Sequence record: OZ346158.1
Reading direction: 5' to 3' (one strand)
Length of the DNA stretch: 64,000 bases
Origin: a phage
This document shows positions 4,578-58,888 of this stretch, in pieces (within the stretch, counting starts at the first letter, position 1; each line of letters begins with the position of its first letter). A program made the translations under genes and the position numbers. The notes beneath the pieces were generated by a model. It was not told where the DNA came from and searched no databases. It was given only the letters and a program-made list of their open reading frames with translations.

Positions 4578-5162
4578 ATGAAAATACTTCAAGAGTTTAA
4601 ACTTTACCAACCGGGATCTGGCGAATACCACGCCAACAAGGAAACCAAAGAGCTGACCCCTCAAGAGGTTGAGGACTACACCGCATACACTGGGTATTTT
4701 TTACGTAATGATGATGGCGATTGGTATGTGCAGTCAAGAACATTACGACAAGAAAATCCGGGTTGTATCTTCCTACTTGTTGACGAAAAGGGAATTCTTA
4801 AGACATCTACAGAAGAACCTGATGCCTTATGGCCTGCTCCAGGTCTTCGTGTGGTTATCGCCAAAAAAGAAGAGGTACCAGAAAACATTATGCTTCACCA
4901 CGACGCTTTGCGTTTAGTTGGTGATGAATTTGTCACAGACAATGAATTCTTTGTTCAACAGGCAGAGGGTGTCATAGAGACAGAACTTGCTTGGGCTACT
5001 GCTAGAATTGGTGCCTATCAAGACATGATTGACCTTGAATATGATCTTACTGATGACCAGAAACGTAACATCAGAGATTTGAAAATGTACAGGGTAAAAC
5101 TTCTTGAAATAGATACATCTAAAGCCCCTGACATTTTCTTCCCGGAGCGACCTACCCTCTAA
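4578..5162 (+). CDS. hypothetical protein, possible tail-fibre assembly/chaperone (by position only)
   Basis: 194-aa ORF immediately downstream of tail-fibre gene, GGAGGA RBS; function inferred only from position. Confidence 0.45.
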   Translation: MKILQEFKLYQPGSGEYHANKETKELTPQEVEDYTAYTGYFLRNDDGDWYVQSRTLRQENPGCIFLLVDEKGILKTSTEEPDALWPAPGLRVVIAKKEEVPENIMLHHDALRLVGDEFVTDNEFFVQQAEGVIETELAWATARIGAYQDMIDLEYDLTDDQKRNIRDLKMYRVKLLEIDTSKAPDIFFPERPTL

Positions 5163-11700: not shown

Positions 11701-14339
11701 CCATGCAAATTCCGGTAACAAACGGATACAAACGTGTTGTGATGATCATTAAGTGCGACCTGATAGGTAAACAAGTTCTTGCAGAAAACGGGACATCCAC
11801 ACATCCTTTTGAGATCGCTCTGCACTATCAGTTTGCTGACTCACCTTTTGCAGGGGATAAGAGAATATCTGATACAGACGCACAGCGTTGTAAGAAAGTA
11901 TTGTTGGGTGCAGGTTGGTGGTGGTATGAGTTTGATTTAACAGACAAATTCACCGACACGTCTAAAGTTGTAACAGGACTTCGTCTAGACCTTGGCGAGA
12001 ACATGCACAAAGCTGTTTGTGATGGCACCTATGGTGACCCTACAATATACCTAAAATATGTTTCTTTTGAGCATCCGGAAGATGTTGTCTACGGTCCAAA
12101 ACTGAGATTGTTTGGCAGCTGGATTGCAAAAGATAGGGTAGGCATGGGTAAGAAGGTAAGAGGGCTCTTGGTTGATGCAGGAACAGAAGACATGCTGGTT
12201 AATGCAGTGTGGCCTGAATTACCTGGGACTCAGTGGGACAACTCAGCCAAATCTATAAACTGGTTTAACATTCATAGGGCCATGTGGACCACTAACTGCT
12301 ACTTGTGGAGAGAGCTTAACGATCAGGCCTTTGGATTCAGCGATGGTAGAAGGATGGCGATCATTTGCTGGACAACACTGCAAAGATGTTATGACCATGA
12401 CTATGAGATTGGGGGCAGGGCATGGAAAAATATCAGGGATAGAATCATAACCAATTTTGCAGACGACAACGGTGGTGGAGCACATAACTTTGGCACAAGC
12501 CGACTCATCCATTTGAACGGATCCTCAGCCTACAAGAAAGAAGGTTACTCTGGGTCTATGATCGAGTGGGGTCTGGTGAAAGATGCTCGCGTATTGATGG
12601 GCCAGCAACTTGCTGCCGCAATAGGTCCCAGCGCAGTGCAGTCGGTTAAACCAGCGTGGTTCGATATTCCATTGTGGTCACCCGGAACACCGGGAACTGC
12701 TGCAATCAACCCTACCACTGGGGATCTAGAAATCTCCTGGGAGGACTTGAAGCAGGTCGGTGGTTGGGACAAAACAGGGTACCAGGTTCAGTGGTGGAGA
12801 GCTGATGGATCTTTAGCTGCTGATGAGTTTGTTAAGGACAATTTCTACACTATGTCCTCTGCAAAAGCACAGCAATTATTTGGTCAGGCAACTCCGTCAA
12901 CGATCACCATGTCTATGTGCTGTAAAGACAACAGGACTGGAGCTTTGGGGCCAAGGGTTGCTAAAGTTTTCTCAGGTATTAAATGGAATCTACCTGTCCA
13001 AAGTATTTCATGGAAGCAAATAGGTGATAACAAGCTGCTGGTTACCCCTGCCTGTCAGTTCAACGCAACTCTTAACGTTGATCCTGCTGTTGCGGCAAAC
13101 TCAGCTAAAGCTTCTGACTTCTCTGTGTCTAACACTGCTATGGCAGATGTGAGGAAGATTGACACGCTGAACGCCAGAATTACCTGTAAAAACACTTATG
13201 GCACATTCCAGATCATCAACAACTTCACAGATGCTGATTCTAAGGTAGTGAGGACAGCAAGCCAGACTTTGAGTTTAGGAACTCTGGCCTATGCGGCCCT
13301 GATCACTGAACAGTCGGCAACACTCCAAGGAGGTGGTGTAGGCAAGTCCATTACAACACCTGTGTGGAAGCCAAATGAGTGGGTTGTGTTTGATTTGACT
13401 GTGGACTTCTCCAGCGATAATAACTGGACATGGGTAAGGAATTGTTTGTCACAGTTGATGGGCGGTCCAAGCTCCGTTAGTGATAGTCACGACTCTACTG
13501 ACCCGAGTGTGTTCCAGGTAGGTAAAACTCACCCAGAGACTGGAGAAACGTTGCCTGACAGGAAGTATGCTTTGGTTTGCATCTCTTACGGGAAGGCAGA
13601 TGTCACCTTCTCAGGGACACACACTTATAACGGAACCTACAACTTCTCAAGGAAGTATAGTCTCAAAGCAGGGAACATTATAGACGAGGTTGGTGTGCTG
13701 TATAATCCGGGCAACGGCATAGGGATTGTTGGTGGTAAACTGCAGATGCAGGAACCTTCTATTACCCCTTCCAACGTATCCGGGATTAGAAAGACTTGGG
13801 AAAGTAGTAATACCAACATTGCAACAGTGGATGCCACCACAGGACTGGTAACATTTAAAGCTACTGGGAATGTCACCATAAAGTTTGTAGTTACAGATGA
13901 TGCAGGGCGCAAAACGTCTTCAACATCTTTTACTGTCAAACAGATGGCACCACAGTGGAGAATGTGGATAGGTACAGCAACAAACGGGGCATACCCTAAT
14001 CCGGCAGGTACTTCTGGTATGAAGACTTTCTCTACAAGCAAACCGATGGAGTACGGCAGCGGTCCTAAGGTAGGGCAGATGGTGTACTTTGGTGCGTATA
14101 TTCCTGAAATTATAGGGCTTCCGAGAAGTCAGCTTCAGTTGCTGTTTGGGGCTGGTGTTGACGATCTTGCCACTTTCGGGTATAGCGACAACATCGAGGC
14201 TGCAAGGAGTTCAGGATGGGTAGGGTTCAGAATGGAGTCTGGAAAGGAAGGCAGGATTCTAGGGACAGCCTCTATAGGTGTTATGTTCCCTGGTGACCAG
14301 CAGTATCGTCTAGAAGCCTACGCAACCTTTTCTCGTTAA
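8703..14339 (+). CDS. giant virion protein (1878 aa) with C-terminal bacterial Ig-like (Big_2-type) domain; probable host-recognition/tail protein
   Basis: 5.6-kb uninterrupted ORF; Ig-like segment ...VSGIRKTWESSNTNIATVDATTGLVTFKATGNVTIKFVVTDDAGRKTSSTSFTVKQ near C-terminus; last gene of structural block. Confidence 0.7.
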   Translation: MLPIPLLKLGRHFLDKRGGIKELAVLSYPIDNSDGTSNTVSYVNSLAILFDDGQLNITGYNKFGECRTGDRNPINYPSETAWNVDHVWRADRAFVIRTFDNQFFYIGCTAGLIGSTAAGGNDVCVNEWTPLPEQIVKGLHLDTHPERLIEVMGGINNTVWVIAEAEGTGILKLYGSGNNTYGSLHVDKNQHATPVKIGETSENPETGPWKNPSINCEVHDNSVIFGGPRGFWIAGYDFLRNNSRNDLVWPPVQITRNDLRGIPADEEWKGFMCGPNGAIIATQRMHKPNDQQLVNVFYGQDVWGDDTWRSLNITYTHEVIMARGYGTSGIFFNNGTKQYRGFSRNLCNDIGAQSANNSPRANFIHYQALATAKYVEQRLPVSWTESVYFQGIHREGFLGTFTVVNGKLWWSGIPRGSFAGSNNLFGGRLNSQGFTEIPENWYKNVPVDSWGIEDIFDVNGVSNVSNIYIGDTVKMKLKPQPEGATFIIDKIELVNAAGTVVTDANYQFSTNWNHGGANEVVVTQYNRNINRRGLYSIKITYHDKHGTGRTYTTRTLNWNTIVPAYPSNGKWHTVGRNKQFHVNDTVYFGLNGTQPAVEGDTSYMVRLHRMDAGSVTYDVTQEIYDQRRATYDNIVKTQALWEFNPNGKGGKMLQVNEQNGTSLTVHEHPDPWPDPGKPHPGARTLKIVSHDAGYFGIRWEATVRYVDGTTNNIGITLGGTSEDNSLKIAYTPRGISIDSMDVVRNGYGDVNVKVTLGEHLGGERIIMYAFDHDPRTNGTYANQAWSYLINAPEPNTKEFYYGMKRDVCKKTGTHDWIAICVKDERTAWDEPVNRWFIGIPTRSDKYVAEYIVCMGGTNLNMCWNEDVNKYSDYDYMRDYSCNLWFNQTTGYPPRQARVNPAIFTDTQVFLTKQANEVQTFKNKYDPNKWFYNCYGAFFWGPGELPGGGSCLNEATYASDYIMGQVKKYKIIPGPETLGNAVDPYIIMTALRSNMDGTSMSMQIPVTNGYKRVVMIIKCDLIGKQVLAENGTSTHPFEIALHYQFADSPFAGDKRISDTDAQRCKKVLLGAGWWWYEFDLTDKFTDTSKVVTGLRLDLGENMHKAVCDGTYGDPTIYLKYVSFEHPEDVVYGPKLRLFGSWIAKDRVGMGKKVRGLLVDAGTEDMLVNAVWPELPGTQWDNSAKSINWFNIHRAMWTTNCYLWRELNDQAFGFSDGRRMAIICWTTLQRCYDHDYEIGGRAWKNIRDRIITNFADDNGGGAHNFGTSRLIHLNGSSAYKKEGYSGSMIEWGLVKDARVLMGQQLAAAIGPSAVQSVKPAWFDIPLWSPGTPGTAAINPTTGDLEISWEDLKQVGGWDKTGYQVQWWRADGSLAADEFVKDNFYTMSSAKAQQLFGQATPSTITMSMCCKDNRTGALGPRVAKVFSGIKWNLPVQSISWKQIGDNKLLVTPACQFNATLNVDPAVAANSAKASDFSVSNTAMADVRKIDTLNARITCKNTYGTFQIINNFTDADSKVVRTASQTLSLGTLAYAALITEQSATLQGGGVGKSITTPVWKPNEWVVFDLTVDFSSDNNWTWVRNCLSQLMGGPSSVSDSHDSTDPSVFQVGKTHPETGETLPDRKYALVCISYGKADVTFSGTHTYNGTYNFSRKYSLKAGNIIDEVGVLYNPGNGIGIVGGKLQMQEPSITPSNVSGIRKTWESSNTNIATVDATTGLVTFKATGNVTIKFVVTDDAGRKTSSTSFTVKQMAPQWRMWIGTATNGAYPNPAGTSGMKTFSTSKPMEYGSGPKVGQMVYFGAYIPEIIGLPRSQLQLLFGAGVDDLATFGYSDNIEAARSSGWVGFRMESGKEGRILGTASIGVMFPGDQQYRLEAYATFSR

Positions 14340-38911: not shown

Positions 38912-39753
38912 AAATAACATTGTGGCTTCGTGCAGTGATGCACGTCGAAAACCTCTTTAATTGACGGGAAGGCTAAGTTGACTTTTACACCTAAACATGG
39001 TAAAAGCTCAATATGCTAATCCGCAGCGAAGACTAAAGGGGTGTAGTTAAAATGGCTAGATCAGTTGATTATCACGGATATACCGTGTTTGATGATGGAA
39101 CAATACCTTTATCGAAACGTGATCATACAACAATGTTCTGTTTTGATAATGGTCGAGGTTACCTTTGCGTAACCATGTTCATCGAGGGGAAGCAGTGCAC
39201 AAAAGGTGTCCACCACTTGGTTGCTGAATGCTTTGTATCAAACCCTGATCCTGAAAGGCTCACATGGGTGAACCATAAGGACGGAAACAAATACAACAAT
39301 GCATACTGGAACCTTGAATGGACCACCCCTGGTGGAAATATCAAACACGCTTATGATAATGACCTCAGAGTAAGGCCAGTCGGTGAGTATAATGCCAACG
39401 CTGTACTGACCGAGGATGAGGTAACGGAGATTTGCGAACTGTTACAAAGTGGTTTACGACAATGCGAGATTAGGGATCTTGGGTATCCTTATGAGACGGT
39501 CAGAGCCATAAAGCAAAGAAGACAGTGGAAACATATCTCTAAAAACTACACCTGGTAGTAACGTTCAGAGACTATCGAAAGCATAGCGCCAACATAAATT
39601 GGTGCGAAGAAGCGAGTAGAGTAGGCCAGCAAGTGCGGTCGAAATGGGAGGTGCCTTGGTAACAAGGTAGTGAGATAGTCCGATCCATACAGGAAACTGT
39701 ATGGCTGTGCACGTAATGGTGCGGGGTAGCTTAACGACCTACCTGAACTATTG
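38912..39753 (+). ncRNA. putative group I self-splicing intron interrupting the DNA polymerase gene
   Basis: 5' exon ends in U, intron ends in G; P1 possible between exon CCAU+AA and UUGUGG at 38920..38925 (U-G wobble at splice site); P2-like hairpin CGTGCA-GTGA-TGCACG; P7-like AGACUA (39568) / UAGUC (39676); P9-like hairpin CCATACAG-GAAA-CTGTATGG; contains HNH ORF. Confidence 0.7.
39052..39558 (+). CDS. HNH homing endonuclease (intron-encoded)
   Basis: 168 aa; HNH motif HHLVAECF...VNHKDGNKYNNAYWNLEW; lies inside the putative intron. Confidence 0.8.
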   Translation: MARSVDYHGYTVFDDGTIPLSKRDHTTMFCFDNGRGYLCVTMFIEGKQCTKGVHHLVAECFVSNPDPERLTWVNHKDGNKYNNAYWNLEWTTPGGNIKHAYDNDLRVRPVGEYNANAVLTEDEVTEICELLQSGLRQCEIRDLGYPYETVRAIKQRRQWKHISKNYTW

Positions 39754-48739: not shown

Positions 48740-49200
48740 ATTTCTAAAATGGATTTCCTCCTTTTGATATTTTACCTACCAGGATATTTTAAAATCCTTA
48801 GAAAATCAGAAAATGGATCGAAAACTAAAATGGATTTTTCAGAGCAGGCACGACGAGATGAACCACTCATCCTATCGTCTGCACCATATTCCAGACCACC
48901 ATTACAGATTTCCCGCACATGCTCACATCCTTCTACTAGAACTTCCCCCACTTACCCTTGACCTTTTATAGTAATAATCCAACCACTACCTTGAAGTTGT
49001 GGCGCAGCTTTCCAAGTACTCGATCTGTTTTTCGTTTCAAAGATTTAATTTTCTGAAAATTTTTCTCGATAAATTTCTCAGTACTCGATCTGTTTTTCGT
49101 TTTCTGAATCGGATTTTCTGGAAATCGTTCCGGCTCTCGACCTGAAATTTTTGGGGACGAAATCGATTTTTCGTTTTCAGAAATGGATTTTTAAAATTTC
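48740..49200. repeat. iteron-like direct repeats in non-coding region
   Basis: AGTACTCGATCTGTTTTTCGTTT at 49015 and 49080 (65-bp spacing), related CGATTTTTCGTTTTCAG at 49163; several AAAATGGAT copies between 48745 and 49190. Confidence 0.6.
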
Positions 49201-49310
49201 TATATGGGAATATTTTAGTGGATACTATTTTATAGGAAATTGTTACGGAGGGTAATTAGCGTGCTAATTAAATTTATTAAATGCGAGGAGTTCTCATTTA
49301 GAATTTTGAA

Positions 49311-49515
49311 TGATAATCATTCTCGTTTGCAGAATAACGGGCAGGCCCGGTGATTGTCTCCCGGCCCCTACTGCCCCGGCTTGTTATTATAGTAACACAC
49401 AGGACAAAGAAAGCAAGAAGTTTTTGCATAAATTTTTAGACGATAATGATAATCGTTCTCATTTCATGCAGCGCCCATCCCCGGTGGTTGTCTCCCCCGT
49501 CACCGGTGCCTGCCG
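49311..49515. repeat. imperfect direct repeat pair (about 55 bp) containing CCGGTG(A/G)TTGTCTCCC
   Basis: ATAATCATTCTCGTTTGCAG...CCCGGTGATTGTCTCCC at 49311 and ATAATGATAATCGTTCTCATTTCATGCAG...CCGGTGGTTGTCTCCCCC at 49444. Confidence 0.6.
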
Positions 49516-49706
49516 TCCTTTCAATAGGTATATTTTGCCACCTGGCGGGGCCGCTGTCAACACTTTTCAAAAAAAAAATTCTAACCTGATGCGCTGACCG
49601 CTGCAACCTGGCAGGGCCTAACTGACCAGGTAGGAGAGAATGAAGGCTTGCAAACCTGGTGGGCCTATGCTATAGGATAGGTAACAATTGAAGAGGAGGT
49701 ACAAAA

Positions 49707-49883
49707 ATGGAAGGTAATATGATCCCCCTGGAAAATGTAGCTATTAATGACGCTGAGGCTATCGCCCTGGTTGAAAAGGCTATGGCGGGAGCGTTGGAAC
49801 ATAAAGAAGAGTACGAAAAAATGGTGGTTAACCTGGCAGGGGCGGCGGCTGGAGAATTCTACCCAAAAAATAATTTTAACTAA
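49707..49883 (+). CDS. hypothetical small protein (58 aa)
   Basis: Below track cutoff; strong RBS AAGAGGAGG 7 nt upstream of ATG. Confidence 0.5.
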   Translation: MEGNMIPLENVAINDAEAIALVEKAMAGALEHKEEYEKMVVNLAGAAAGEFYPKNNFN

Positions 49884-49968
49884 TGGTTGACAGCTCGGAC
49901 AGTTCTTGTTATTCTTATCCTCGCAAGGTGAACAACACCACACCAATTAACAGAGAGGATAAAAAATC

Positions 49969-50166
49969 ATGAACGCCTACGGAATTAAAGTACGTCGCAA
50001 CACTCGCCAGGTGGTCACCAATCAAGTGATTTGCCGGGTGGATGTAACCATCAACAACGGGCAAGGCCTTTATAAATTTCGTCGCGGTCATAGCTATACC
50101 CTGCAACAGCTTAACCGTTGCGCCCTGACAAAAGGTCAGATCAACCACTGGTTTAATAAAAAATAA
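49969..50166 (+). CDS. hypothetical basic protein
   Basis: 65 aa, RBS GAGAGGATAAAAAATCATG. Confidence 0.55.
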   Translation: MNAYGIKVRRNTRQVVTNQVICRVDVTINNGQGLYKFRRGHSYTLQQLNRCALTKGQINHWFNKK

Positions 50167-50229
50167 TGTTGACATAGGGTCTGACACAAAATACACTGAA
50201 ATCACAAAAGACACTAAGAGGATAAAATC

Positions 50230-50628
50230 ATGAAAACCACTACCTTTAATTTTGATAATGCGGACTTTTCTTTTTCTGATGTCAAGAACTGCCGCCGTGA
50301 TCGTGGATTTTACAAGGCTTATAATCTGGTGGGCCTGGACGATGACAATAATTTGCACGAAGTAGCTGAGATCCGGTATTATGCCGCCGCCAGTGGTAAC
50401 ACTCACTACTGCGTGTTTTGGATTCACGACAACAAGAACAATAAGTACGGTTATACTGGCGGCAAGGCGAGCGGTCACGGTTACGATAAAGCTAACGCAG
50501 CACTTGAGAGCGCATTAAATGCTATGGGGATCACTGCCGACGGCTGGATCTACGAAGAAGAGTTTTTGTCGGCACTTGCTGACCACCTGGGCTATAAAAA
50601 GCACATTGTGACATGCGCCCACGAATAA
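50230..50628 (+). CDS. hypothetical protein
   Basis: 132 aa, RBS AAGAGGATAAAATCATG; promoter-like TTGACA-17-TACACT at 50169. Confidence 0.55.
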   Translation: MKTTTFNFDNADFSFSDVKNCRRDRGFYKAYNLVGLDDDNNLHEVAEIRYYAAASGNTHYCVFWIHDNKNNKYGYTGGKASGHGYDKANAALESALNAMGITADGWIYEEEFLSALADHLGYKKHIVTCAHE

Positions 50629-50711
50629 AAATCATTGACACGCTGCAAAATTTAAGTAAACTAGACACAAAAGGCGGGAATGTTTCCCGCCAGCACAAAG
50701 GAAAAAAGATC

Positions 50712-51107
50712 ATGAATAAGAACGTACGCCGCATCATGAACGAACTGGCAAACGATGAAAAAATTATTGACATGCATTTAGTCAACATTTGCCGCCGTTG
50801 TGTAACATATAACAACCGCGCCGCAAAAGCGCGTGAGATGAACGCAAAAGGCACCTTAAAGCCCTTTCAGGTGGTTGTAAAATCTATAACCAGTGCAGCA
50901 GGCCAGGCGCATGACCACAACAACGGGAGCACTAATATTGATCCGTCTTACGTAATGAAACGGATCCGGACTTGCAAGAATAAAGAGCAGGTGTATAATG
51001 TCATAGACTGGTTGGATTCTATGGGCGATGTGGTTTACAATAGGTTTTCTGCAGCTATCGAGATCCAGCTTGACAGGTTGGACGGTAAAGTACTGAAAAC
51101 TTACTAA
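50712..51107 (+). CDS. hypothetical protein
   Basis: ATG after AAAGGAAAAAAG; upstream TTGACA-16-TAAACT and leader hairpin GGCGGGAA-TGTT-TCCCGCC. Confidence 0.5.
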   Translation: MNKNVRRIMNELANDEKIIDMHLVNICRRCVTYNNRAAKAREMNAKGTLKPFQVVVKSITSAAGQAHDHNNGSTNIDPSYVMKRIRTCKNKEQVYNVIDWLDSMGDVVYNRFSAAIEIQLDRLDGKVLKTY

Positions 51108-51155
51108 GATTATTTTTAGATGGCCTTGACTTCAGGGCCATCAATAAAGTAAACT
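51105..51155 (+). repeat. 51-bp intergenic element, copy 1 (hairpin ATGGCC-TTGACTTCAG-GGCCAT)
   Basis: TAAGATTATTTTTAGATGGCCTTGACTTCAGGGCCATCAATAAAGTAAACT starting at the stop codon; identical copy at 51736, diverged copy at 55475. Confidence 0.8.
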
Positions 51156-51187
51156 AATCCCAGTTAAGCGAAAAAGGAGGCTTGAAG

Positions 51188-51307
51188 ATGAGCACTACAC
51201 GCCAACACACAAAGGTAACGATTATCGTTTGCATCATTGGTTACATCCTGGCGCAAATGTTGATGGGTAGCGCCAATGATTTCGCAAAATTTTTCTTAGA
51301 CTTTTAA
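51188..51307 (+). CDS. small membrane peptide (39 aa)
   Basis: AAAAAGGAGG RBS; hydrophobic core VTIIVCIIGYILAQMLM. Confidence 0.4.
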   Translation: MSTTRQHTKVTIIVCIIGYILAQMLMGSANDFAKFFLDF

Positions 51308-51335
51308 TTGACAAGCTAACTTAAATCAGTATAAT
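51308..51335 (+). promoter_or_regulatory. sigma70-like promoter TTGACA-16-TATAAT
   Basis: Consensus -35 and -10 hexamers, then leader hairpin and RBS for gene 51388. Confidence 0.6.
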
Positions 51336-51387
51336 ACTAAGCACATAAACGGGAAAACTTCCCAGAACACCAAAAGGAGAAAACATT

Positions 51388-51738
51388 ATGAATACTTCCA
51401 TCACTATGACCGCCGAAGAAAAAGCCCTGCAGATCGCCGCTCTGAAAAAACAGATTGCAGAACTTGAAGACAAGATCGACAATTTTGAAATCGACGAAGA
51501 CAAGTACGACGATAAATATGATGAATGGTTAGACGAGATCTACGGCGAAATTATGATCGGAAACATTTCTTTTCTTCCGTCGCGTATCCTCAAGGAGCTA
51601 GATCCTATCGCTTACCGCTGCGGATTTAGCGACTACATCGACAGCCTGGATATTGAGGACGATGAAGAATACCAGGAATTACAGACAGAGTTAGAAGAAG
51701 CAAAAGAAGAGCTTGCAGAACTGGAAGAAAACGAGTAA
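51388..51738 (+). CDS. highly acidic coiled-coil protein (candidate DNA mimic)
   Basis: 116 aa dominated by D/E (e.g. DIEDDEEYQELQTELEEAKEELAELEENE); AAAAGGAGAAAA RBS; own promoter. Confidence 0.6.
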   Translation: MNTSITMTAEEKALQIAALKKQIAELEDKIDNFEIDEDKYDDKYDEWLDEIYGEIMIGNISFLPSRILKELDPIAYRCGFSDYIDSLDIEDDEEYQELQTELEEAKEELAELEENE

Positions 51739-51786
51739 GATTATTTTTAGATGGCCTTGACTTCAGGGCCATCAATAAAGTAAACT
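51736..51786 (+). repeat. 51-bp intergenic element, copy 2
   Basis: Identical to 51105..51155; begins at stop codon of 51388..51738. Confidence 0.8.
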
Positions 51787-51827
51787 TTATACTGTTAACA
51801 CTGAACTAATGCATAGGAGTTAAAACC

Positions 51828-52073
51828 ATGGCAGCACTAATCACCAAATATTATGCCCCTACCAACACCAAAAGCGCCCGTATCATGGTAAAAGGCTTCG
51901 GACGTAAAAAGGTGTACACCTGGGATTATGCCTTAGACACGGAAGACAACTACACCAACGCGATGACCGATTTTATTAATGATCTGAACACGCGGATCTT
52001 GACAAATTATAAAATTACCGATATTGCCTATATAGGGGAAGGCGGGATCTGTTTTGTCGGTATCGTCAAATAA
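51828..52073 (+). CDS. hypothetical protein
   Basis: 81 aa, RBS GGAGTTAAAACCATG. Confidence 0.5.
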   Translation: MAALITKYYAPTNTKSARIMVKGFGRKKVYTWDYALDTEDNYTNAMTDFINDLNTRILTNYKITDIAYIGEGGICFVGIVK

Positions 52074-52148
52074 GCTGTTTTTTCGGTGGTCCTGGTAGCA
52101 GGGCCATCTATAAAGATAGTTTATCAATACAATGAAAGGAGAAAGTAC

Positions 52149-52502
52149 ATGATCAGCGGGGCAAGTTTTATTATTGGCGCTATTGCTACGGCTTTAATTG
52201 TAAACAAGATCCAATCTAAAAACGAAAAAGATAGCAACGCCCTTACAGAATACCCGTTTTGGGTATTCAACGACAATGAAGACTATATTATCAAGTACAA
52301 GAATGAGAAGGGCGACCAGGTAACACCTCGACCGATCCCGGCTTACAAGATGCAAGAAACACTATACCGCCTAAAGGCTGGAGGCGCAAAAATCGTAGAC
52401 TTTTGGGGATACGATCACACAGATCAGGAAGTTATAAAGCGCCGTATCCGGGCTATTCAGGCCAATATTGAAGTTAGCAAGGGGGGAATATATGAAGATT
52501 AA
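52149..52502 (+). CDS. membrane-anchored hypothetical protein
   Basis: ATG after AAAGGAGAAAG; N-terminal hydrophobic helix. Confidence 0.5.
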   Translation: MISGASFIIGAIATALIVNKIQSKNEKDSNALTEYPFWVFNDNEDYIIKYKNEKGDQVTPRPIPAYKMQETLYRLKAGGAKIVDFWGYDHTDQEVIKRRIRAIQANIEVSKGGIYED

Positions 52503-52689
52503 TTTTGAGAAGATTGTAAAGCGATCTCATGCTTCCGAAGAGCTGCCGGAACGCCGCCAGCGCAACAATAAACTGAATAAGCCAAAAAGATTTGGGAAGA
52601 TCTGGCGGAATCATTATGATCGCAAATTACCGGGCCTGCTTTTGGAACGTGAACGACAGGCGGAACGATACCGCCACAAAGGCAAATAA
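52492..52689 (+). CDS. small basic protein
   Basis: ATG after GGGGGGAA; Arg/Lys-rich 65 aa. Confidence 0.4.
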   Translation: MKINFEKIVKRSHASEELPERRQRNNKLNKPKRFGKIWRNHYDRKLPGLLLERERQAERYRHKGK

Positions 52690-52697
52690 CAACCAAC

Positions 52698-52727
52698 GCC
52701 CCGCCATTGTGCGGGGCTTTTTATTTC
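52698..52727 (+). terminator. rho-independent terminator
   Basis: GCCCCGC-CATTGT-GCGGGGC followed by TTTTTATTT. Confidence 0.75.
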
Positions 52728-52871
52728 TATCCTACAAATAGCGCCCCTGGTTGGCCCTGTAAGCGCCAAAAAGGCCCCACCTATGCAATCGCCCCCCCTT
52801 TAACCTGAAAACATCGCTTAGGGCCGTTTTATGGCGTTAAAAATATCATTGACAGTGATTTTATTTAAAGC

Positions 52872-52899
52872 TTGACATCTTAAACAGGTTAGCTATACT
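52872..52899 (+). promoter_or_regulatory. sigma70-like promoter TTGACA-16-TATACT
   Basis: cTTGACAtcttaaacaggttagcTATACT upstream of gene 52932. Confidence 0.55.
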
Positions 52900-52931
52900 A
52901 ACCACATCAAAGAGAGAAAGGAGTAAACGCC

Positions 52932-53192
52932 ATGCGTAAATTAAAAAATTTTGATAAAGTTGATGTTGTCCTGAATAATTTTTACTACTGCAACAACAAG
53001 GCCATTTGGTGGCGTGATAGTTCCACCGATAAAGTCAAGGCGCGCTTTCTCCAGGGGCACTGGCAAGGCCGCCCAGTGATTAAAATCATGGGGCAATTGG
53101 TAGCGTTTAAAAATTGCCGCCGTGTTGATGACGTTGAAGAGATCTTGAATATTTTACGCCACAATAATTTAAAAAATAGTGTTGACAAGTAA
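52932..53192 (+). CDS. hypothetical protein
   Basis: 86 aa, AAAGGAG RBS. Confidence 0.5.
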   Translation: MRKLKNFDKVDVVLNNFYYCNNKAIWWRDSSTDKVKARFLQGHWQGRPVIKIMGQLVAFKNCRRVDDVEEILNILRHNNLKNSVDK

Positions 53193-53209
53193 ATCTCAAT
53201 AAGTATACT
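53182..53209 (+). promoter_or_regulatory. sigma70-like promoter TTGACA-16-TATACT
   Basis: gTTGACAagtaaatctcaataagTATACT, followed by leader hairpin GCGGGAA-GTTT-TCCCGC and RBS. Confidence 0.55.
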
Positions 53210-53266
53210 TAAGCACACAGGCGGGAAGTTTTCCCGCCACTAACAAAGAAAATAGGAGAAAATATC

Positions 53267-53890
53267 ATGACCACCGTTAACATTACCACAGGTTGCAATT
53301 TATCTTTCGACGTGCTGACCGACGAACAAAAAGAAAAAGCTATTGAAATGGTCCGCGAAAGAGAAGAACACAGCGGAGAGGATTTTTTCGCAGAAAGTGT
53401 AATTGAATATTATAAAGAACAAGTTTTTCCAGAGTACGGCCTTGAAGATACCGATGTACATTGGTCCGGCTTTTGGTGTCAAGGCGATGGCGCGTCAATT
53501 AATGCTGAAAATGTAGACTTAGAGAAATTCTTGCGTAAAGTCAAGGCCCTGACCAAGTTCCGATCAATTCGTCACTTGTTCGGCACAATGCACGATGGCG
53601 AACTATCAGCCAGTGTTGAACGCGACAAGTACAGCCATTACAGCCATGAAAACACTGTAAGCGGATATATTGATACTACCTGGCTAGATCTGACCGCAAA
53701 ACAAGAAAATAAAGTAGAAGATCTGGAAGAGCTGATCACCGAGACGGTACGGGAGCTATCCCGCAAGGTTTATGTAGACCTGGAGGAGGCCTATCTTGAA
53801 CAGTTTACTACCGAAAACCTGATCGGCCTTATTGAAGCCAATGATTGGCGGTTTGATGTGGATGAATATGGAGAAATGAGTTTTTCATAA
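53267..53890 (+). CDS. hypothetical acidic protein (207 aa)
   Basis: AATAGGAGAAAA RBS; acidic composition; own promoter. Confidence 0.55.
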   Translation: MTTVNITTGCNLSFDVLTDEQKEKAIEMVREREEHSGEDFFAESVIEYYKEQVFPEYGLEDTDVHWSGFWCQGDGASINAENVDLEKFLRKVKALTKFRSIRHLFGTMHDGELSASVERDKYSHYSHENTVSGYIDTTWLDLTAKQENKVEDLEELITETVRELSRKVYVDLEEAYLEQFTTENLIGLIEANDWRFDVDEYGEMSFS

Positions 53891-53898
53891 ATAAAGTG

Positions 53899-53926
53899 TT
53901 GCAATAATCTAAAAACCTGCTATATT
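53899..53926 (+). promoter_or_regulatory. sigma70-like promoter TTGCAA-16-TATATT
   Basis: gTTGCAAtaatctaaaaacctgcTATATT upstream of gene 53982. Confidence 0.5.
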
Positions 53927-53981
53927 AAAACTTAAGGGGGAGAGATGACTTGCCCCCACACAAAACAAAGAGGAAAACATC

Positions 53982-54362
53982 ATGAAAAACACTACTAAAG
54001 CTATTGACACCGTTATGTTTAACCTGGTTACATTCCGTGAAGATATGAAAGATCTTCCACGTGAAACAGTGTGCGACCATATCGAAAACTATCGCAAACT
54101 AATCAAAGAGTTGCCTTTAAAACGTGACCAGTACGCGGCTAACGCTATGCTTAACGCCATGATCAAGAAAATGATTCAGTGCGATTTGACTTTAGCTTAT
54201 GATTATGCAGGTGGTCGTTTTGCAGTATACAATCAGCCCGTGCCTGGTATGAGCACCACAGAAGAATTGCACGCGTTAAATCTAAAACAAGACGTATGGG
54301 ATAACATGCCCCGCGTGGTGGTGTGGGCAGAAAGCGGAAAGATTTACGGCGATAATTTTTAA
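53982..54362 (+). CDS. hypothetical protein
   Basis: 126 aa, AAAGAGGAAAACATCATG RBS. Confidence 0.55.
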   Translation: MKNTTKAIDTVMFNLVTFREDMKDLPRETVCDHIENYRKLIKELPLKRDQYAANAMLNAMIKKMIQCDLTLAYDYAGGRFAVYNQPVPGMSTTEELHALNLKQDVWDNMPRVVVWAESGKIYGDNF

Positions 54363-54372
54363 TCAGGTAACA

Positions 54373-54398
54373 GGCGGCATATTTGCCGCCTTATTGTT
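54373..54398 (+). terminator. rho-independent terminator
   Basis: GGCGGC-ATATTT-GCCGCC followed by TTATTGTT. Confidence 0.6.
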
Positions 54399-54426
54399 AA
54401 ACAGAACTGCAAAAGAGGTACATAGA

Positions 54427-54798
54427 ATGGAATTTATTATTTTGGCTGTAGTAGTTGCCTTGTTCAACGCCTGGATCGCTGGCAAGATAGGTAGATCCGC
54501 TTTTCTATGGTTTGTTATATCTATTTTCCTGGGAGTGGTTGCAACTATTGTATTGGTTATCCTTGCAATTGTTGACAAGGGGAATAATAGAAAGGGTAAA
54601 GTATTTTCAGACCTGTACGACGCTCAAACGTTTGTCAACGCCTATTATAGTGATCTTCCAGTCTCCCTACGTTGCAGCCTTGCACAACAGGTTTTCGATG
54701 AAGCTAAAACCAGAGATCACGCCCATGAGATTTGTTTAACTGAGGCGGATCGCCTATTTGAGAGGAATAGAAAATATGTGGACCAGCCGTTTAAATAA
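54427..54798 (+). CDS. inner-membrane protein (two predicted TM helices)
   Basis: ATG after AAAAGAGG; N-terminal hydrophobic segments IILAVVVALFNAWIAG and FLWFVISIFLGVVATIVLVILAIV. Confidence 0.55.
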   Translation: MEFIILAVVVALFNAWIAGKIGRSAFLWFVISIFLGVVATIVLVILAIVDKGNNRKGKVFSDLYDAQTFVNAYYSDLPVSLRCSLAQQVFDEAKTRDHAHEICLTEADRLFERNRKYVDQPFK

Positions 54799-54908
54799 TG
54801 CCACGTTAATTAACCCCTTTAGTGAAGATTTGAAGCCAGCCGCCTGGCGGGATGGATTCAATAACGAAAGCTTTATTTTCAGGCCTGATCTTAAGGAATT
54901 TTATAACA

Positions 54909-55136
54909 ATGGATCGAACAACGACAGAGATAATTTTTCTTGTAATGTGCGTGGTGATAATACTCCTGGGGGCCATTGCAAACCACGTCACTGCTAACAG
55001 GAGGAAAGGGGAGACGATGACACCCAAGGATAAGCCCCGTACCGATAAGGCGCGCCGTGTTATGGTATGGCTTGAGATCATCGCCCTTGAAATATTGTTA
55101 GGCGTAGGGATGTATTTTATCGCTGTAAGTAATTGA
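54909..55136 (+). CDS. possible small membrane protein (start and frame uncertain)
   Basis: ATG after AAGGA; two hydrophobic helices; competes with overlapping ORF 54776..54997. Confidence 0.3.
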   Translation: MDRTTTEIIFLVMCVVIILLGAIANHVTANRRKGETMTPKDKPRTDKARRVMVWLEIIALEILLGVGMYFIAVSN

Positions 55137-55276
55137 TAACGGCCCCGATCCCTGGGGCCTAACTTTTCAAATTTTTTTCTCCCTGAGTGTTGCAATCCGA
55201 TCCAGAATATGGATAATAACAATCAACGGGGAGACACTCCCCACCGCATAGACAAAGTTCCAAAAGGAGAAACAAA

Positions 55277-55477
55277 ATGAGCAACAATATCCGCGTTATT
55301 AACTTCAAAAAAGAAGAAAAAATTGCCGTGCTGATTGACGGTCAAGAAATCTTTAAAGGTGATTATGAAGATCATCAAACGGCGATTAGTATCACTCGCG
55401 TGATTGGTTACCATAATTTTTACCCTCAAGGCGCTGAGGCAGCAGTAAAACGAATTAAAGAGATTGTAGGCCTGTAA
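55277..55477 (+). CDS. hypothetical protein
   Basis: 66 aa, AAAAGGAGAAACAAAATG RBS. Confidence 0.5.
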   Translation: MSNNIRVINFKKEEKIAVLIDGQEIFKGDYEDHQTAISITRVIGYHNFYPQGAEAAVKRIKEIVGL

Positions 55478-55525
55478 AATTTATTTTTAGATGGCCTTGA
55501 CTCCAGGGCCATCAATAAAGTAAAT
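55475..55525 (+). repeat. 51-bp intergenic element, copy 3 (diverged)
   Basis: TAAAATTTATTTTTAGATGGCCTTGACTCCAGGGCCATCAATAAAGTAAATT. Confidence 0.75.
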
Positions 55526-55568
55526 TTAAACCCTGTTAAAATAATCAGTGCAAAAAGGAGTAATGATC

Positions 55569-55868
55569 ATGTTTATCCAGGCTAATAATCTTTATTTCTT
55601 TGATGGTCAGATCGTAGACGGCGTGGAGGTGGAAATCACCGGGTGCCCTGGCGGTCAGGTTATGACTTTTCGGAATAATGCCTTTGATGATTCTCATATC
55701 GTTATGAGAATGGAAGTTAGTAAGCTGGATGACAAGAAAACACTCATTGATTATTCCGTGAAAGATCATCCAGACTACCACATGATCTATGGTGATTTGT
55801 GCATTGTTGACCGTGACAAGGTGGGCGGCATTGTGATCGCTATTGTGAACGATGTTTTCTCAAACTAA
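55569..55868 (+). CDS. hypothetical protein
   Basis: ATG 8 nt after AAAAAGGAG. Confidence 0.5.
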   Translation: MFIQANNLYFFDGQIVDGVEVEITGCPGGQVMTFRNNAFDDSHIVMRMEVSKLDDKKTLIDYSVKDHPDYHMIYGDLCIVDRDKVGGIVIAIVNDVFSN

Positions 55869-55885
55869 TTTCAGCAGGTGATTTT

Positions 55886-56236
55886 ATGAAAGTAAAACTA
55901 TATTACCTTAATGAGCTTAACCCCCTTGCCCAGGTCCGCGCCATGGCTAATACCTTGATTTGTGAGAAATCTGTATATTGTGTTGAGCTTAACTCCATGC
56001 GTGAACGTCTCAAAGGTGGTTACTTTGACATCCATGCTGCAATCAACGGCCTGAATATGGAATTTATCCGCTTACGTAACAGCCGCCAGAATCTGGGAAG
56101 AATGGAACAAGATCCGGCCCACCTTCGTAAGCTGGTTATTGAAAATCATCTAATGTTTAATGCCGATGGTGATTATTACCATTTTCACCGTAAACGCTGG
56201 TACCGTAGCGGCAATATAGGAAAGAATGCAAAATAA
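55886..56236 (+). CDS. hypothetical protein
   Basis: 116-aa ORF, weak RBS. Confidence 0.45.
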   Translation: MKVKLYYLNELNPLAQVRAMANTLICEKSVYCVELNSMRERLKGGYFDIHAAINGLNMEFIRLRNSRQNLGRMEQDPAHLRKLVIENHLMFNADGDYYHFHRKRWYRSGNIGKNAK

Positions 56237-56270
56237 GGCCCCTGGCAGGGCCTGCAGCGATATAATCACA

Positions 56271-56305
56271 TAAAGGCTATGCGGTTGCATAGCCTTTATT
56301 ATTTT
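56271..56305 (+). terminator. rho-independent terminator
   Basis: AAAGGCTATGC-GGTT-GCATAGCCTTT followed by ATTATTTT. Confidence 0.7.
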
Positions 56306-56444
56306 GGCGTTACAGCGGCCCCCAAGGCGCTTAAAAAAATTTTTAAAGAAGTACTTGCATCAAGTCCTACAATATGGATAATAAAGGGTGTCGGGGGGGC
56401 GGTGAGGCCTCCAATCATTAACCGGATAGATAGGAGTTAAAACC

Positions 56445-56729
56445 ATGGCTATTGTTACCGTTGGCGATGTAGTAGAAATGGAAGCCAAATACTTAAAAGC
56501 TGGTATGCATATCATACGGAATGATCAAGAATTGTTATTAACCATGGTTGAATATAATCCCGGTCAGGATTATCCAAGCATTGACTACTTTTTCCAGTAT
56601 GTTGATGAAGAATTAAAAGAGGATGAGGCTTATCAGGGTGAATTTTGTAATTTCTTTTGCCCTGATGAGGTTGTAAAAGTTATCTATCAACCTGGCGTAC
56701 CTTTCCCGCTGCACGCTATCAACAAATAA
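56445..56729 (+). CDS. hypothetical protein
   Basis: 94 aa, TAGGAGTTAAAACCATG RBS. Confidence 0.5.
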   Translation: MAIVTVGDVVEMEAKYLKAGMHIIRNDQELLLTMVEYNPGQDYPSIDYFFQYVDEELKEDEAYQGEFCNFFCPDEVVKVIYQPGVPFPLHAINK

Positions 56730-56784
56730 ACCTGGCGGGGCCGAAAAGGCCCCCAATTATGAAAATAAAGAGAGGCAAATCATC

Positions 56785-57018
56785 ATGATGGAACAAATTA
56801 AACGCGCCGAGGCTATTAATGGCAACGTGATCTATTTTGTCAGCAAAAACGAAAAAGGCGTACCCTATGCGGCGGTAATAGTACAGCCTGACGGCGATTA
56901 TTGGTGTACTGTGTACGGCGCTTATTCTTTTGGGCGTCCAGTGCATGATAAAATTTTGAAAGTAGCGAACCCTACCGGGAAAAATATCACAGCAGAAAAA
57001 TTTTTTGAAAATAGTTGA
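56785..57018 (+). CDS. hypothetical protein
   Basis: 77 aa, AGAGAGG RBS. Confidence 0.5.
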   Translation: MMEQIKRAEAINGNVIYFVSKNEKGVPYAAVIVQPDGDYWCTVYGAYSFGRPVHDKILKVANPTGKNITAEKFFENS

Positions 57019-57089
57019 CATGACCATATAAGACTGTAGTATATAAATCAAAGGGGCAAGCCCCACCAACCACAAAGAGGATAAAAATC

Positions 57090-57269
57090 ATGGCTATTAT
57101 TGCAAAGACTGAGATCGTAGGCTTGGATTCTATTCTCCTCGCATATGAGGAAGCTATAGAAATGTATGTGGTTTCCTATGGTGAGTATATCCGTGAATAT
57201 AAATCTATTGATCTGGCTTTTGAATGTTATATTCGCCAGGTTAATAAAGCGTACGATGATTATCGTTAA
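57090..57269 (+). CDS. hypothetical small protein (59 aa)
   Basis: Below track cutoff; AAAGAGGATAAAAATCATG RBS; TTGACA promoter at 57015. Confidence 0.45.
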   Translation: MAIIAKTEIVGLDSILLAYEEAIEMYVVSYGEYIREYKSIDLAFECYIRQVNKAYDDYR

Positions 57270-57359
57270 AATAGTTTGAAAACAAACAACCATCTTACAA
57301 AGCATAATACATAAGGCGGTGGAATGGTCCGCCACCTGGAACAAGAAGAGGAAAACAAA

Positions 57360-57464
57360 ATGAAACAGAAATTAATTGATGCGGTGATCCTGGTTATTGC
57401 CCTGGGTATTGGCCTGATTGCAACCATGGCTAATGTGATCTTGTCTTCCAACGGTATCGGGTGA
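57360..57464 (+). CDS. possible small membrane peptide (34 aa)
   Basis: AGAAGAGGAAAACAAAATG RBS; hydrophobic core AVILVIALGIGLIATMA. Confidence 0.35.
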   Translation: MKQKLIDAVILVIALGIGLIATMANVILSSNGIG

Positions 57465-57779
57465 GGTTGGCAAATGATCACTAACAAAACAGGCAAGCGG
57501 AATTTTTACTCAACTTACAGATCGGCAAGCCTGAGATCTGGTATTGCACTAAAACACCACGTGACGAAATGAAAGACTTCACCGCCACGCTGCAACGGGT
57601 AAAGATATCCATCACGCAGAAAAAGGCCTTGATAGTGGTGGAAGGTGAGATCCCTCAAACCGTTGTTATAGTTGAGCGTACAGCATAGTTTAATTTATAC
57701 CGATACCCGAAAATTAACCAACAAAGCATAAACAGGCGGTTACCGCCGCCTTAAACGTAGCAGAAAGAGGATAGACACA

Positions 57780-58064
57780 ATGAAAAAGATGATCGCAGTG
57801 GTTGCCCTGGTTGTTGGACTTAATGCGCCTGTAATGGCTAAAGAGCTGGCAAAAGAGGTTAATCTAACGGATATTCATGCCGTCAATCGAATCGGGGTTA
57901 CTTATCGCTTATGCCTTGCCGCTAAAACTTTTAAGGACGGCACGACAGAGTACTACGGATTCGAAGGTGTCCGGTGCGGTGAACTTGCTCGCGACCTTAA
58001 GGAAGATCCAGACCTGGAGGATCTGCCCATCACCGTAAACGGGAAAACTTACGTAAACCGTTAA
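57780..58064 (+). CDS. secreted/periplasmic small protein
   Basis: 94 aa; signal peptide MKKMIAVVALVVGLNAPVMA; AGAAAGAGGATAG RBS. Confidence 0.55.
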   Translation: MKKMIAVVALVVGLNAPVMAKELAKEVNLTDIHAVNRIGVTYRLCLAAKTFKDGTTEYYGFEGVRCGELARDLKEDPDLEDLPITVNGKTYVNR

Positions 58065-58212
58065 CCATGATAAAGATAATCATCACCTTGGCATCGTGGC
58101 GGGATCGCTGGCGCTCTTTCTCCTTATGGTTAGGTATGTGCTGATCGGTATTGTCCTGGTAGTCAGTGATCTATTGGAAACGGTTGGCACCTTGTTTTAA
58201 AGAGCGGTAAAA

Positions 58213-58404
58213 ATGAATATCGAACAAGTTAGAAAGGTATTGGCGGTACTGCGTTATCATAATCATAGAAAGGTCATAGACGATCCTGATTATGTCGATT
58301 CAAGCCTGGAAGGGGATACACTACAAGCCATAAGTAACATGCAAGAATTGCTAAAGCGCATGACAGAGAAAAACCGACCGGACTACATAGGCGAAAAAAT
58401 ATAA
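58213..58404 (+). CDS. hypothetical protein
   Basis: 63-aa ORF, weak RBS. Confidence 0.4.
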   Translation: MNIEQVRKVLAVLRYHNHRKVIDDPDYVDSSLEGDTLQAISNMQELLKRMTEKNRPDYIGEKI

Positions 58405-58467
58405 TCCTTATAAACTACAAAACAGGGCTTGCAATGGTCCTGTTTTTTGTTATACTTGTTTCACGGC

Positions 58468-58505
58468 AGGCGCCTGGCGACGGGGGAGACAATCACCGGG
58501 TGTGC
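58468..58505 (-). repeat. inverted copy of the 49.35/49.48-kb CCGGTGATTGTCTCCC element
   Basis: GGGGGAGACAATCACCGGG on + strand is the reverse complement of the motif at 49346 and 49479; flanks GCCTGCCGT also shared. Confidence 0.6.
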
Positions 58506-58615
58506 CTGCTATATAAAAACTATAAAAACCGTTGACATCTGCCAGGTGGTGGGGTAGCATTTATCTCGAAGGGGGCAAAAGCGCCCACACAACAACCGGA
58601 AGAGAGGAAAACGCC

Positions 58616-58888
58616 ATGTTAAGCTGGATTAACCAAGAAGTTGAATCACGTTTCAATGCTATTTGGGATCTCATCGAAAAAGAGGACGGAACATCAAGCC
58701 CTTATCTCAATAATCTTGAATTCCATTTCGTGGAAGCGATGAACGCAGAACATGATCACGAAGGTGGTGCGGATGAATTCGCTAAAGGATATGGCTTCAA
58801 CAATGCCAACGAAATGATCGAGGCGGTTGTACTCCAGGCTGAGGAAGATTATCAATTAAAAACGCTTGAATTCTGCCGCCGTAAGTAA
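58616..58888 (+). CDS. hypothetical protein
   Basis: ATG after GAAGAGAGGAAAA; TTGACA promoter-like at 58531. Confidence 0.5.
   Translation: MLSWINQEVESRFNAIWDLIEKEDGTSSPYLNNLEFHFVEAMNAEHDHEGGADEFAKGYGFNNANEMIEAVVLQAEEDYQLKTLEFCRRK

Follow-up and report, generated by a model that had tools for sequence, protein, structure and literature searches.

What is a short non-coding element doing at both ends of a block of small early genes in a strictly lytic phage, twice in one orientation and once in the other? The question arises from a 64,000-nucleotide stretch of sequence record OZ346158.1 (the window). Its source is an rV5-like coliphage (Vequintavirus); two 1.2-1.4 kb pieces around the element match approximately 120 records at 90-99% identity, and the region belongs to the early part of the genome, dense in small open reading frames (ORFs) on the + strand. 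Phages of this kind are widely used in therapy and biocontrol. Nearly all genes of their early region lack a known function, and studies of how this region is controlled are lacking; the element offers a handle on early transcription. A sequence-only reading had described the repeats and suggested regulator binding sites, recombination sites or cassette boundaries. We find that the copies are regulatory cassettes, not site-specific recombination sites. In our best explanation, held with middling confidence, each copy is a conserved G-rich initial transcribed region behind a host sigma-70 early promoter, and its effect would be exerted as RNA or through a host factor.

The arrangement itself was confirmed in three ways. 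The 14-nt core GGTGRTTGTCTCCC matched exactly at 49349-49362 (+), 49483-49496 (+) and 58484-58497 (-). With up to 2 mismatches it matched four times, against 0.56 expected, a number reached by 0 of 100 shuffles; the fourth match, at 55229-55242, was rejected as a chance near-palindrome. Comparing the window with itself gave copy 2/copy 3 as its longest inverted repeat pair (49462-49504 and 58476-58518; 43 nt, 77% complementary) and copy 1/copy 3 as the second longest (49334-49362 and 58484-58512; 29 nt, 86%). An nhmmer profile built from 34 unique instances matched the window exactly three times (49320-49404 +, 49456-49534 + and 58526-58441 -), and did so exactly three times in C12, the closest relative (complete genome, 137.6 kb), with all else at noise level. 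These profile matches show that the element is real, present in three copies and confined to two intergenic gaps:

49320-49404, core 49349-49362, predicted functional strand -: copy 1 (nhmmer E=1e-19); predicted leader on the - strand, antisense to the genes, starting at about 49382 with AAGCCGGGGCAGUAGGGGCCGGGAGACAAUCACCGGGCCUGCCCGUUAUUCUG…
49456-49534, core 49483-49496, predicted transcript on the - strand, starting at about 49525: copy 2 (nhmmer E=2e-12)
58441-58526, core 58484-58497, predicted functional strand +: copy 3 (nhmmer E=2e-19); predicted 5' leader on the + strand, in the sense of the genes, starting at A58463 with ACGGCAGGCGCCUGGCGACGGGGGAGACAAUCACCGGGUGUGCCUGCUAUAU…

The copies form two subtypes. 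Copies 2 and 3 belong together, with approximately 45 nt in common; copy 1 agrees with them over no more than the 5' ~29 nt. The two direct copies and the inverted one 9 kb off thus stand as the sequence-only reading had them, and its consensus of about 35 nt describes copies 2 and 3 but not copy 1. Its placing of the direct copies just upstream of the small-gene array was only partly right, as small + strand ORFs lie on both sides of 49.3 kb.

Both the element and its layout are conserved among related phages. Copy 3 is present in approximately 120 Vequintavirus records at 76-97% identity, and a copy-3-type query from a Certrevirus-like contig matched 172 phage records, among them Cronobacter, Pectobacterium, Salmonella, Klebsiella and Enterobacter phages and Escherichia phages of 142-154 kb. 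Eight further genomes were compared: A142 (Vequintavirus), B15 (Phapecoctavirus), J-01, CR3, P7_Pc and POP17 (Certrevirus), KP2025 and A73. All eight, representing at least five lineages, carry one or two copies in the direct orientation at the start of a run of small genes of 9-11.6 kb and one inverted copy at its end. The bracketed segment of the sequence-only reading is therefore a layout kept in related genomes, within which the genes have diverged beyond nucleotide recognition. Between genera the block no longer aligns at the DNA level; few stretches still do, those of the element among them, which indicates purifying selection on the element. Of the ORFs between the repeats, the ten largest were all assigned to PHROG families without a known function. 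A non-coding element that is more conserved than the genes beside it is found in at least 170 phage genomes, and it recurs in unrelated phages (see below).

The element does not code for protein. An ATG-initiated ORF of 95 amino acids (49310-49597, +) stays in a single frame across both copies 1 and 2; it was rejected because other genera have stops and frame-shifting indels in it. Since this frame is not conserved, the hypothetical proteins annotated over the elements in some database records are probably spurious. Indels in the G-run (5, 6 or 11 G) likewise shift any reading frame across the element. This run lies ahead of GAGACAA (window 58478-58482) and differs among close relatives, with five G in the window, six in Gotham, EdH4 and V18 and 11 in slur12 (L295), which may reflect homopolymer slippage or a sequencing artefact. 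The window contains no tRNA or tmRNA (ARAGORN). A search of the window against Rfam 15 gave nothing at the gathering score, and searches in E-value mode around all copies and the related loci gave only chance-level matches far below gathering. The motif strings were not found in a literature search, which likewise returned no small-RNA or transcriptome study of rV5-like phages. With no Rfam family and no match in that search, the motif is undescribed.

To which strand the element belongs was judged from promoters. The best promoter upstream of the element was scored on both strands for 34 instances, copy 2 not among them, and compared with random genome positions. Mean best scores were 9.31 on the strand complementary to the motif as first described, 6.19 on the motif-sense strand and 6.27 (standard deviation 1.67) at random positions. 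On the complementary strand 17 of the 34 instances scored 9.5 or more, compared with 3.2% of random positions. The promoter association is therefore restricted to one strand. In reverse-complement orientation almost every instance has a -35 hexamer (TTGACT, TTGCAA, TTGCTT or TTGATC), a 16-18-nt spacer and a -10 hexamer that is usually extended by TG (TGtTATTCT, TGtTATACT, TGtTATTAT), followed by 7 nt of which the last two are CA. From the end of the -10 to the core the distance is 25-29 nt in all scored rV5-like instances; copy 2, with approximately 35 nt, falls beyond the range of those 34. The strand implied by the sequence-only reading was thus probably the wrong one, the promoters pointing to the complement as the transcribed, functional strand. 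Its suggestion of a regulator holds in a general sense, as the copies are regulatory and each is tied to a promoter. The promoters concerned are:

49389-49416, - strand: predicted promoter of copy 1, TTGCTT (49416-49411), 16-nt spacer, extended TGt-TACTAT (49394-49389), found by reading the sequence
49532-49560, - strand: promoter of copy 2, TTGACA, 17-nt spacer, CAAAAT with TG (consensus scan, 10/12 matches)
58419-58456, + strand: terminator hairpin (58419-58446) and promoter of copy 3, TTGCAA (58429-58434, in the hairpin loop), 16-nt spacer, TGt-TATACT (58451-58456) (consensus scan)
58532-58560, + strand: second promoter after copy 3, TTGACA, 17-nt spacer, TAGCAT, before the next gene's ATG at 58617 (consensus scan)

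The copy 1 promoter sequence is identical in C12, where it was scored as TTGCTT/16/TACTAT with TG, 26 nt from the core. The authors of the rV5 study accepted a -10 of TGTTATTCT type, the same type as TGtTACTAT of copy 1, for promoter P195A. An A/T-rich tract precedes the copy 2 promoter, which has this in common with the other early promoters of the phage, and the context is comparable with the rV5 promoter list. The promoter at 58532-58560, immediately downstream of copy 3, is the equivalent of P168 (108112-108157) in rV5 Table S4. Copies 1 and 2 have a promoter without a terminator hairpin; the composite terminator/promoter build of copy 3 is present in all genera examined. We consider it probable that each copy is a transcribed leader on the complementary strand.

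Folding of the predicted RNAs pointed to the same strand. Mean fold energy was -17.3 kcal/mol on the complementary strand versus -14.9 kcal/mol on the motif-sense strand, and the predicted leader of copy 3 folds at -25.1 kcal/mol (z ~ -3). Across 14 aligned copy-3-type alleles, a 13-bp 5' hairpin pairs in 81% of cells, well above slid controls. Of the 181 cells of this hairpin, 32 hold G-U pairs that would turn into C-A mismatches on the opposite strand; they favour the complementary strand, in agreement with the choice made from promoters. We conclude that selection acts mainly on primary sequence and that the 5' hairpin, present in some lineages, is no defining feature.

The motif also occurs in a group of unrelated phages. 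A metagenome scan with an 18-mer yielded freshwater contigs, 42-47 kb in length, each of which carries several copies; the two best-covered had six and seven exact 18-mer matches, and a 215-kb contig had four. There are 18 unique freshwater copies, 16 of which have a perfect TATAAT ending 19-20 nt before GGGGGAGACAA (the G-run). Their build is a terminator hairpin (ahead of most copies), then TTTCATTTATAAT, 7 nt and AAUACCUGARAAC-GGGGGAGACAAWCACCGG. The distance from -10 to core is 21-22 nt, versus 25-29 nt in the rV5-like group. Most copies stand ahead of an ORFan gene, with another promoter-like stretch in between; at one locus per genome the terminator of a convergent gene follows the element by approximately 40 nt, giving a predicted RNA of about 95 nt. 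The motif common to both groups is approximately 32 nt, ACCUG-RGRAC-(N)-GGGGAGACAAWCACCGG. When proteins were compared over about 27 kb of a 42-kb freshwater genome plus fragments, only an HNH homing endonuclease was common to the two groups, and the ORFs of the freshwater outgroup contig gave no PHROGs matches. In the window this endonuclease is a 168-residue ORF (39052-39558, +), 37-49% identical to the freshwater ORFs and directly following an 809-residue ORF that resembles DNA polymerase by inspection only.

No host homologue of the element was found. Bacterial chromosomes (GTDB, 185,579 species' genomes) gave 39 scattered chance matches, the sole enterobacterial one lying within a coding region, and the element was not found in 5,426 complete E. 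coli genomes. An exact 16-mer, CCGGTGATTGTCTCCC, does occur inside an apparent, widespread enterobacterial prophage major-capsid gene (…LPVIVSQYVGDQLVLVNAPDIYLADDGG…) in approximately 100 near-identical contigs (IMG/VR L003-L121), where it would be perfectly complementary to the predicted leader RNA. Adding one base to the query removed the match, most likely a coincidence that redundancy has multiplied.

Beside each of copies 1 and 2 lies a 19-bp palindrome, placed downstream with respect to the predicted RNA. The sequence-only reading had begun its direct repeats with these palindromes (ATAATCATTCTCG… and ATAATGATAATCGTTCTCAT…), which exist and resemble Fur boxes:

49309-49327: Fur-box-like palindrome by copy 1, AATGATAATCATTCTCGTT, of the 7-1-7 form TGATAAT-C-ATTCTCG
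49442-49463: Fur-box-like palindrome by copy 2, GATAATGATAATCGTTCTC, agreeing with the E. coli Fur box at 17/19 positions

The Fur box consensus and the binding of Fur to extended arrays have been described (PMC11353095). Positions 49442-49460 match the 19-bp consensus GATAATGATAATCATTATC at 17/19 positions, with 0 matches in 100 shuffles; the palindrome by copy 1 matches at 15/19, and agreement with the 7-1-7 form TGATAATnATTATCA is 13/15. A scan for the 7-1-7 repeat matched at 49311 and 49447 with 1 mismatch each. In other genera three or four such palindromes form arrays at exactly 29-bp spacing by the upstream copy, with consensus AATGAGAATCATTCTCATT; they are found in B15 (L176, 4589-4694) and CR3 (L178, 1851-1965) and also in records L130, L177, L180 and L129, and PVP-SE1 has further ones dispersed over its gene-free region of 2.2 kb (L179, 3050-5290). 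The likeness to Fur boxes thus extends from the consensus to the arrays. The differences are that the family half-site TGAGAAT departs from TGATAAT of the Fur family at one central position (G for T), that the boxes lie downstream of the predicted starts and not over a -10 or -35, and that they flank the element without being the element itself. Judging by their sequence, the palindromes could be bound by Fur or by a phage protein instead. If host Fur does bind them, the phage would be sensing the iron status of its host, a rarity among strictly lytic phages.

We propose a unit consisting of the promoter, often with an extended -10, a start at the A of the CA 7 nt after the -10, and a leader …ACCUGRGRAC(N)GGGGGAGACAAWCACCGG…. 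The conserved part would then correspond to about +8 to +45 of an early transcript made by host sigma-70 RNA polymerase. Copy 3 would be a cassette in gene direction, fused to the hairpin that terminates the gene before it; the second promoter lies downstream of it, as do the last few early genes. As tandem cassettes directed against the genes, copies 1 and 2 would lead out of the start of the 9-kb block and into the Fur-box-like palindromes and a repeat-rich non-coding gap. The leader would change the fate of its transcript, either as a promoter-proximal pause or processivity switch or by protecting the 5' end, and GAGACAAUCACC is the segment on which this predicted effect would depend. The antisense pair may serve as non-coding RNA and as a transcriptional boundary at the block head, possibly made responsive to iron by Fur at the adjacent boxes. 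Action through the host transcription or RNA machinery is favoured because unrelated phages have the leader at a fixed distance from the start site without proteins in common, the homing endonuclease aside, in the sequence compared. That the leader works as RNA or co-transcriptionally on host polymerase, with a host and not a phage factor, is a tentative proposal. More speculatively, the element may represent an undescribed class of promoter-proximal leader or short non-coding RNA that uses a conserved host component, be it RNA polymerase or some general factor that binds RNA. Unrelated lineages would have acquired or kept it independently of one another: the rV5-like Vequintavirinae and Phapecoctavirus of enterobacteria, the ~45-kb freshwater phages and a 215-kb contig. 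In the rV5-like phages it would in addition be wired to arrays of Fur-box-like operators, through which the iron status of the host would control an antisense RNA where the early block begins. If these predictions hold, three transcripts, two of them antisense, could be mapped and mutated.

Known systems offer partial parallels. The nutL and nutR sites of lambda and putL and putR of HK022 are short conserved elements of early transcripts, arranged as an inverted pair since the early transcripts diverge from a central region, and put acts on host polymerase without a phage protein. The present leaders are likewise short and inverted, and the protein independence of put fits the lack of proteins shared between the two phage groups. 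By contrast with lambda nut, there is no conserved boxB-type hairpin, and no boxA (CGCUCUUA, or UGCUCUUUAACAA in its rrn form) occurs within 1 mismatch in 49000-49800 or 58300-58800 on either strand. The two covarying stem-loops of put have no counterpart here, and the leftward transcripts would run antisense to genes, not into an operon. A second parallel is with the face-to-face promoters of coliphages 186 and P2. The leftward promoter 49560-49532 faces rightward transcription and a possible Fur-box promoter approximately 60 bp off, placing the element of copy 2 in the overlap of facing transcription; however, the rightward promoter lacks statistical support and a strictly lytic phage has no lysis/lysogeny decision to make. 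By-eye comparison with the ops, sigma-54, IHF, DnaA-box, Ter and Chi consensus sequences gave no convincing match.

Several points weigh against the proposed leader. RNAalifold, run on two subfamilies and both strands, returned no consensus structure (0 to -2.3 kcal/mol). The transcribed strand had a mean fold z of only -1.0, compared with -0.5 for the motif-sense strand, and pairing of the 5' end with the region after the core was significant in only 11 of 40 instances, mainly E. coli Vequintavirus alleles (z ~ -3). Covariation among the 14 copy-3-type alleles did not exceed that of shuffles, 52 of 500 reaching the observed score, and comprised a single compensatory double change. All start sites are sequence predictions. 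The copy 1 promoter, the weakest of the three, has 3/6 consensus positions in its -35 and 4/6 in its -10 and is rescued by TG only; the consensus scan of the window did not call it, its score being below threshold. The antisense copies 1 and 2 are followed by no - strand terminator, no gene and no conserved ORF. In Salmonella phage PVP-SE1 (Seunavirus), of which 14 kb were examined, only the upstream copy was found, and the paired layout is thus not universal. Finally, primary-sequence conservation at a fixed distance from the start site suits a DNA operator equally well.

Such an operator is the strongest of the alternatives, though we judge it unlikely. The non-palindromic core and the block AATAGCGGGCA would be bound by a phage or host protein at approximately +20 to +55, which would block or regulate these three promoters only, for example by shutting them off once the early phase is over. 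Conservation of primary sequence with no supported RNA structure, the fixed distance to the -10 and the presence of only three sites per genome are all consistent with this. Its binder would have to be a conserved host protein, as the freshwater group has the same core and no other protein than the homing endonuclease is common to both groups in the sequence compared. Further, the core is without dyad symmetry, its distance from the -10 differs between the groups (25-29 versus 21-22 nt), and the G-U pairs favour one strand. Neither an operator nor a leader, nor any other model considered here, accounts for the invariance of GAGACAAWCACC.

We regard as improbable that the copies are cassette boundaries or recombination sites, at which segments would be exchanged or inverted by site-specific recombination or by homologous recombination between dispersed copies. 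The inverted copies do bracket a block of 9-11.6 kb with gene turnover between genera. The alignment of the window with C12 runs up to 58406 and resumes from 58445 with a different terminator hairpin in between, so that a break in homology, with the terminator swapped, coincides with the edge of copy 3; alleles of copy 3 are also numerous (76-97% identity) within genomes otherwise ~94% identical. The idea of recombination sites in the sequence-only reading nevertheless found no backing as regards site-specific recombination or inversion. Both flanks of the block have the same relative orientation in every relative among the matches listed, which gives no sign of inversion. For an invertible segment of the Gin/Hin/Cin type the inverted geometry is present, but no recombinase Pfam or PHROG match was obtained for the ten largest ORFs of the block. 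The freshwater copies each stand directly behind a promoter, a context of gene expression and not of recombination. Three copies per genome are too few for shuffling, the junction is a single case without a pattern, and recombination leaves the strict promoter spacing and the invariant core unexplained.

A more limited role in homologous recombination is suggested by the PeSL (promoter-early stem-loop) cassettes of T4-like phages (PMC2839356, PMC4122927). These are composite terminator/early-promoter motifs of similar build (PMC4122927), short and repeated in intergenic gaps among small ORFan early genes. What they have in common with copy 3 and the freshwater copies is a terminator hairpin fused to a sigma-70 promoter, and the junction at the edge of copy 3 recalls the crossover points at T4 PeSLs. 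Unlike PeSLs, the most conserved part here is the ~35-nt transcribed segment past the start site and not the hairpin or promoter; copies 1 and 2 have no hairpin and run against the genes, rV5-like genomes have only three copies, and there is no sequence relationship. It is possible that the element serves as a PeSL-like homologous-recombination junction, an idea drawn from one breakpoint (58406-58445).

A part in a replication origin is equally improbable. G-rich transcripts would form R-loops or primers, and the AT-rich palindromes and the GATC-containing tandem repeats would be iterons and an unwinding region. The origins of T7 and T4 consist of a promoter plus an AT-rich segment. Here two tandem promoters would fire into a gene-free region rich in AT, repeats and GATC, which includes:

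49006-49191, + strand: three GATC-containing tandem repeats of 65-74 nt, just to the left of copy 1 and directly downstream of the predicted antisense transcripts

From their sequence, the clustering of GATC and the iteration of these repeats would be origin-like, and the CR3 gap (L178, 1640-1810) contains related TCGATC…TTTTTCGTTTT repeats (GGTCTCGATCG…CGTATTCTC). The first 45 nt of the predicted RNAs contain 18-19 G (G19/C14 for copy 1), the upstream copy of other genera has its three or four palindromes at 29-bp spacing, and an origin needs neither RNA structure nor coding. By contrast, the freshwater phages have several copies per ~45-kb contig, each before a gene, which is too many and the wrong context; copy 3 precedes ordinary genes; GC skew, also in the rV5 paper, shows only the change in gene orientation; and the invariant A/C-rich GAGACAAWCACC has no explanation in an R-loop role.

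Our initial reading, that Fur-repressed promoters using GATAAT of the palindromes as their -10 make motif-sense small RNAs carrying GGUGAUUGUCUCCC, was dropped as very improbable because promoter scores on that strand are random (6.19 versus 6.27): the 17/19 Fur match of box 49442-49460, a readable TTGCAT-18-GATAAT upstream of copy 2 and, for copy 3, an RNA end at the hairpin 58419-58446 read in reverse, followed by UUUUGU on the - strand, are outweighed by the absence of any better-than-random promoter overlapping the Fur-like boxes on the motif-sense strand, by Vequintavirus copies 3 that lack a box, by freshwater copies with a perfect TATAAT on the other strand and no promoter on this one, and by G-U pairs that would become mismatches.

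Other features of these loci were noted alongside the element. A palindrome, TTGATAG-N7-CTATCAA, comes after the gene-sense copy in Phapecoctavirus-like phages (L176 14490-14520, L129 ~11975-12000, L126 ~790-815, L181 ~13485-13510) and does not occur in the window; by its sequence it looks like an operator of another kind. A non-coding sequence of approximately 110 nt (…ACCGGCGATCNACCTTCC…GTTAGCCCCGCCTTTNCGCCGTGGGGTGGCG…) is common to two subfamilies, at ~4815-4930 in B15 (L176) and ~2090-2200 in CR3 (L178). It has its own strong promoter on the antisense strand (TTGACA-17-TATACT in B15). The window lacks this sequence, and Rfam gave no match to it. Octamers resembling the Chi site of E. coli, GCTGGTGG, lie at 49648-49655 and 58541-58550 (CCTGGTGG, CAGGTGGTGG), within the spacers of two + strand promoters flanking the elements.

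The terminal region differs among close relatives, as seen in the window from 60595 onward and in Gotham (L001) at 3824-4496. The idea of a T5-like first-entering segment was dropped: the annotated 459-bp terminal repeat of Gotham has no match in the window, and homology to this phage ends at 60595. Within the early block there is also a family of 51-nt repeats (51105-51155, 51736-51786, 52071-52121 and 55476-55526), two of them identical. Each has a hairpin, GATGGCC…GGCCATC, around TTGACT, with TAAACT 18 nt later, and from this sequence the family looks like a second type of repeated promoter cassette.

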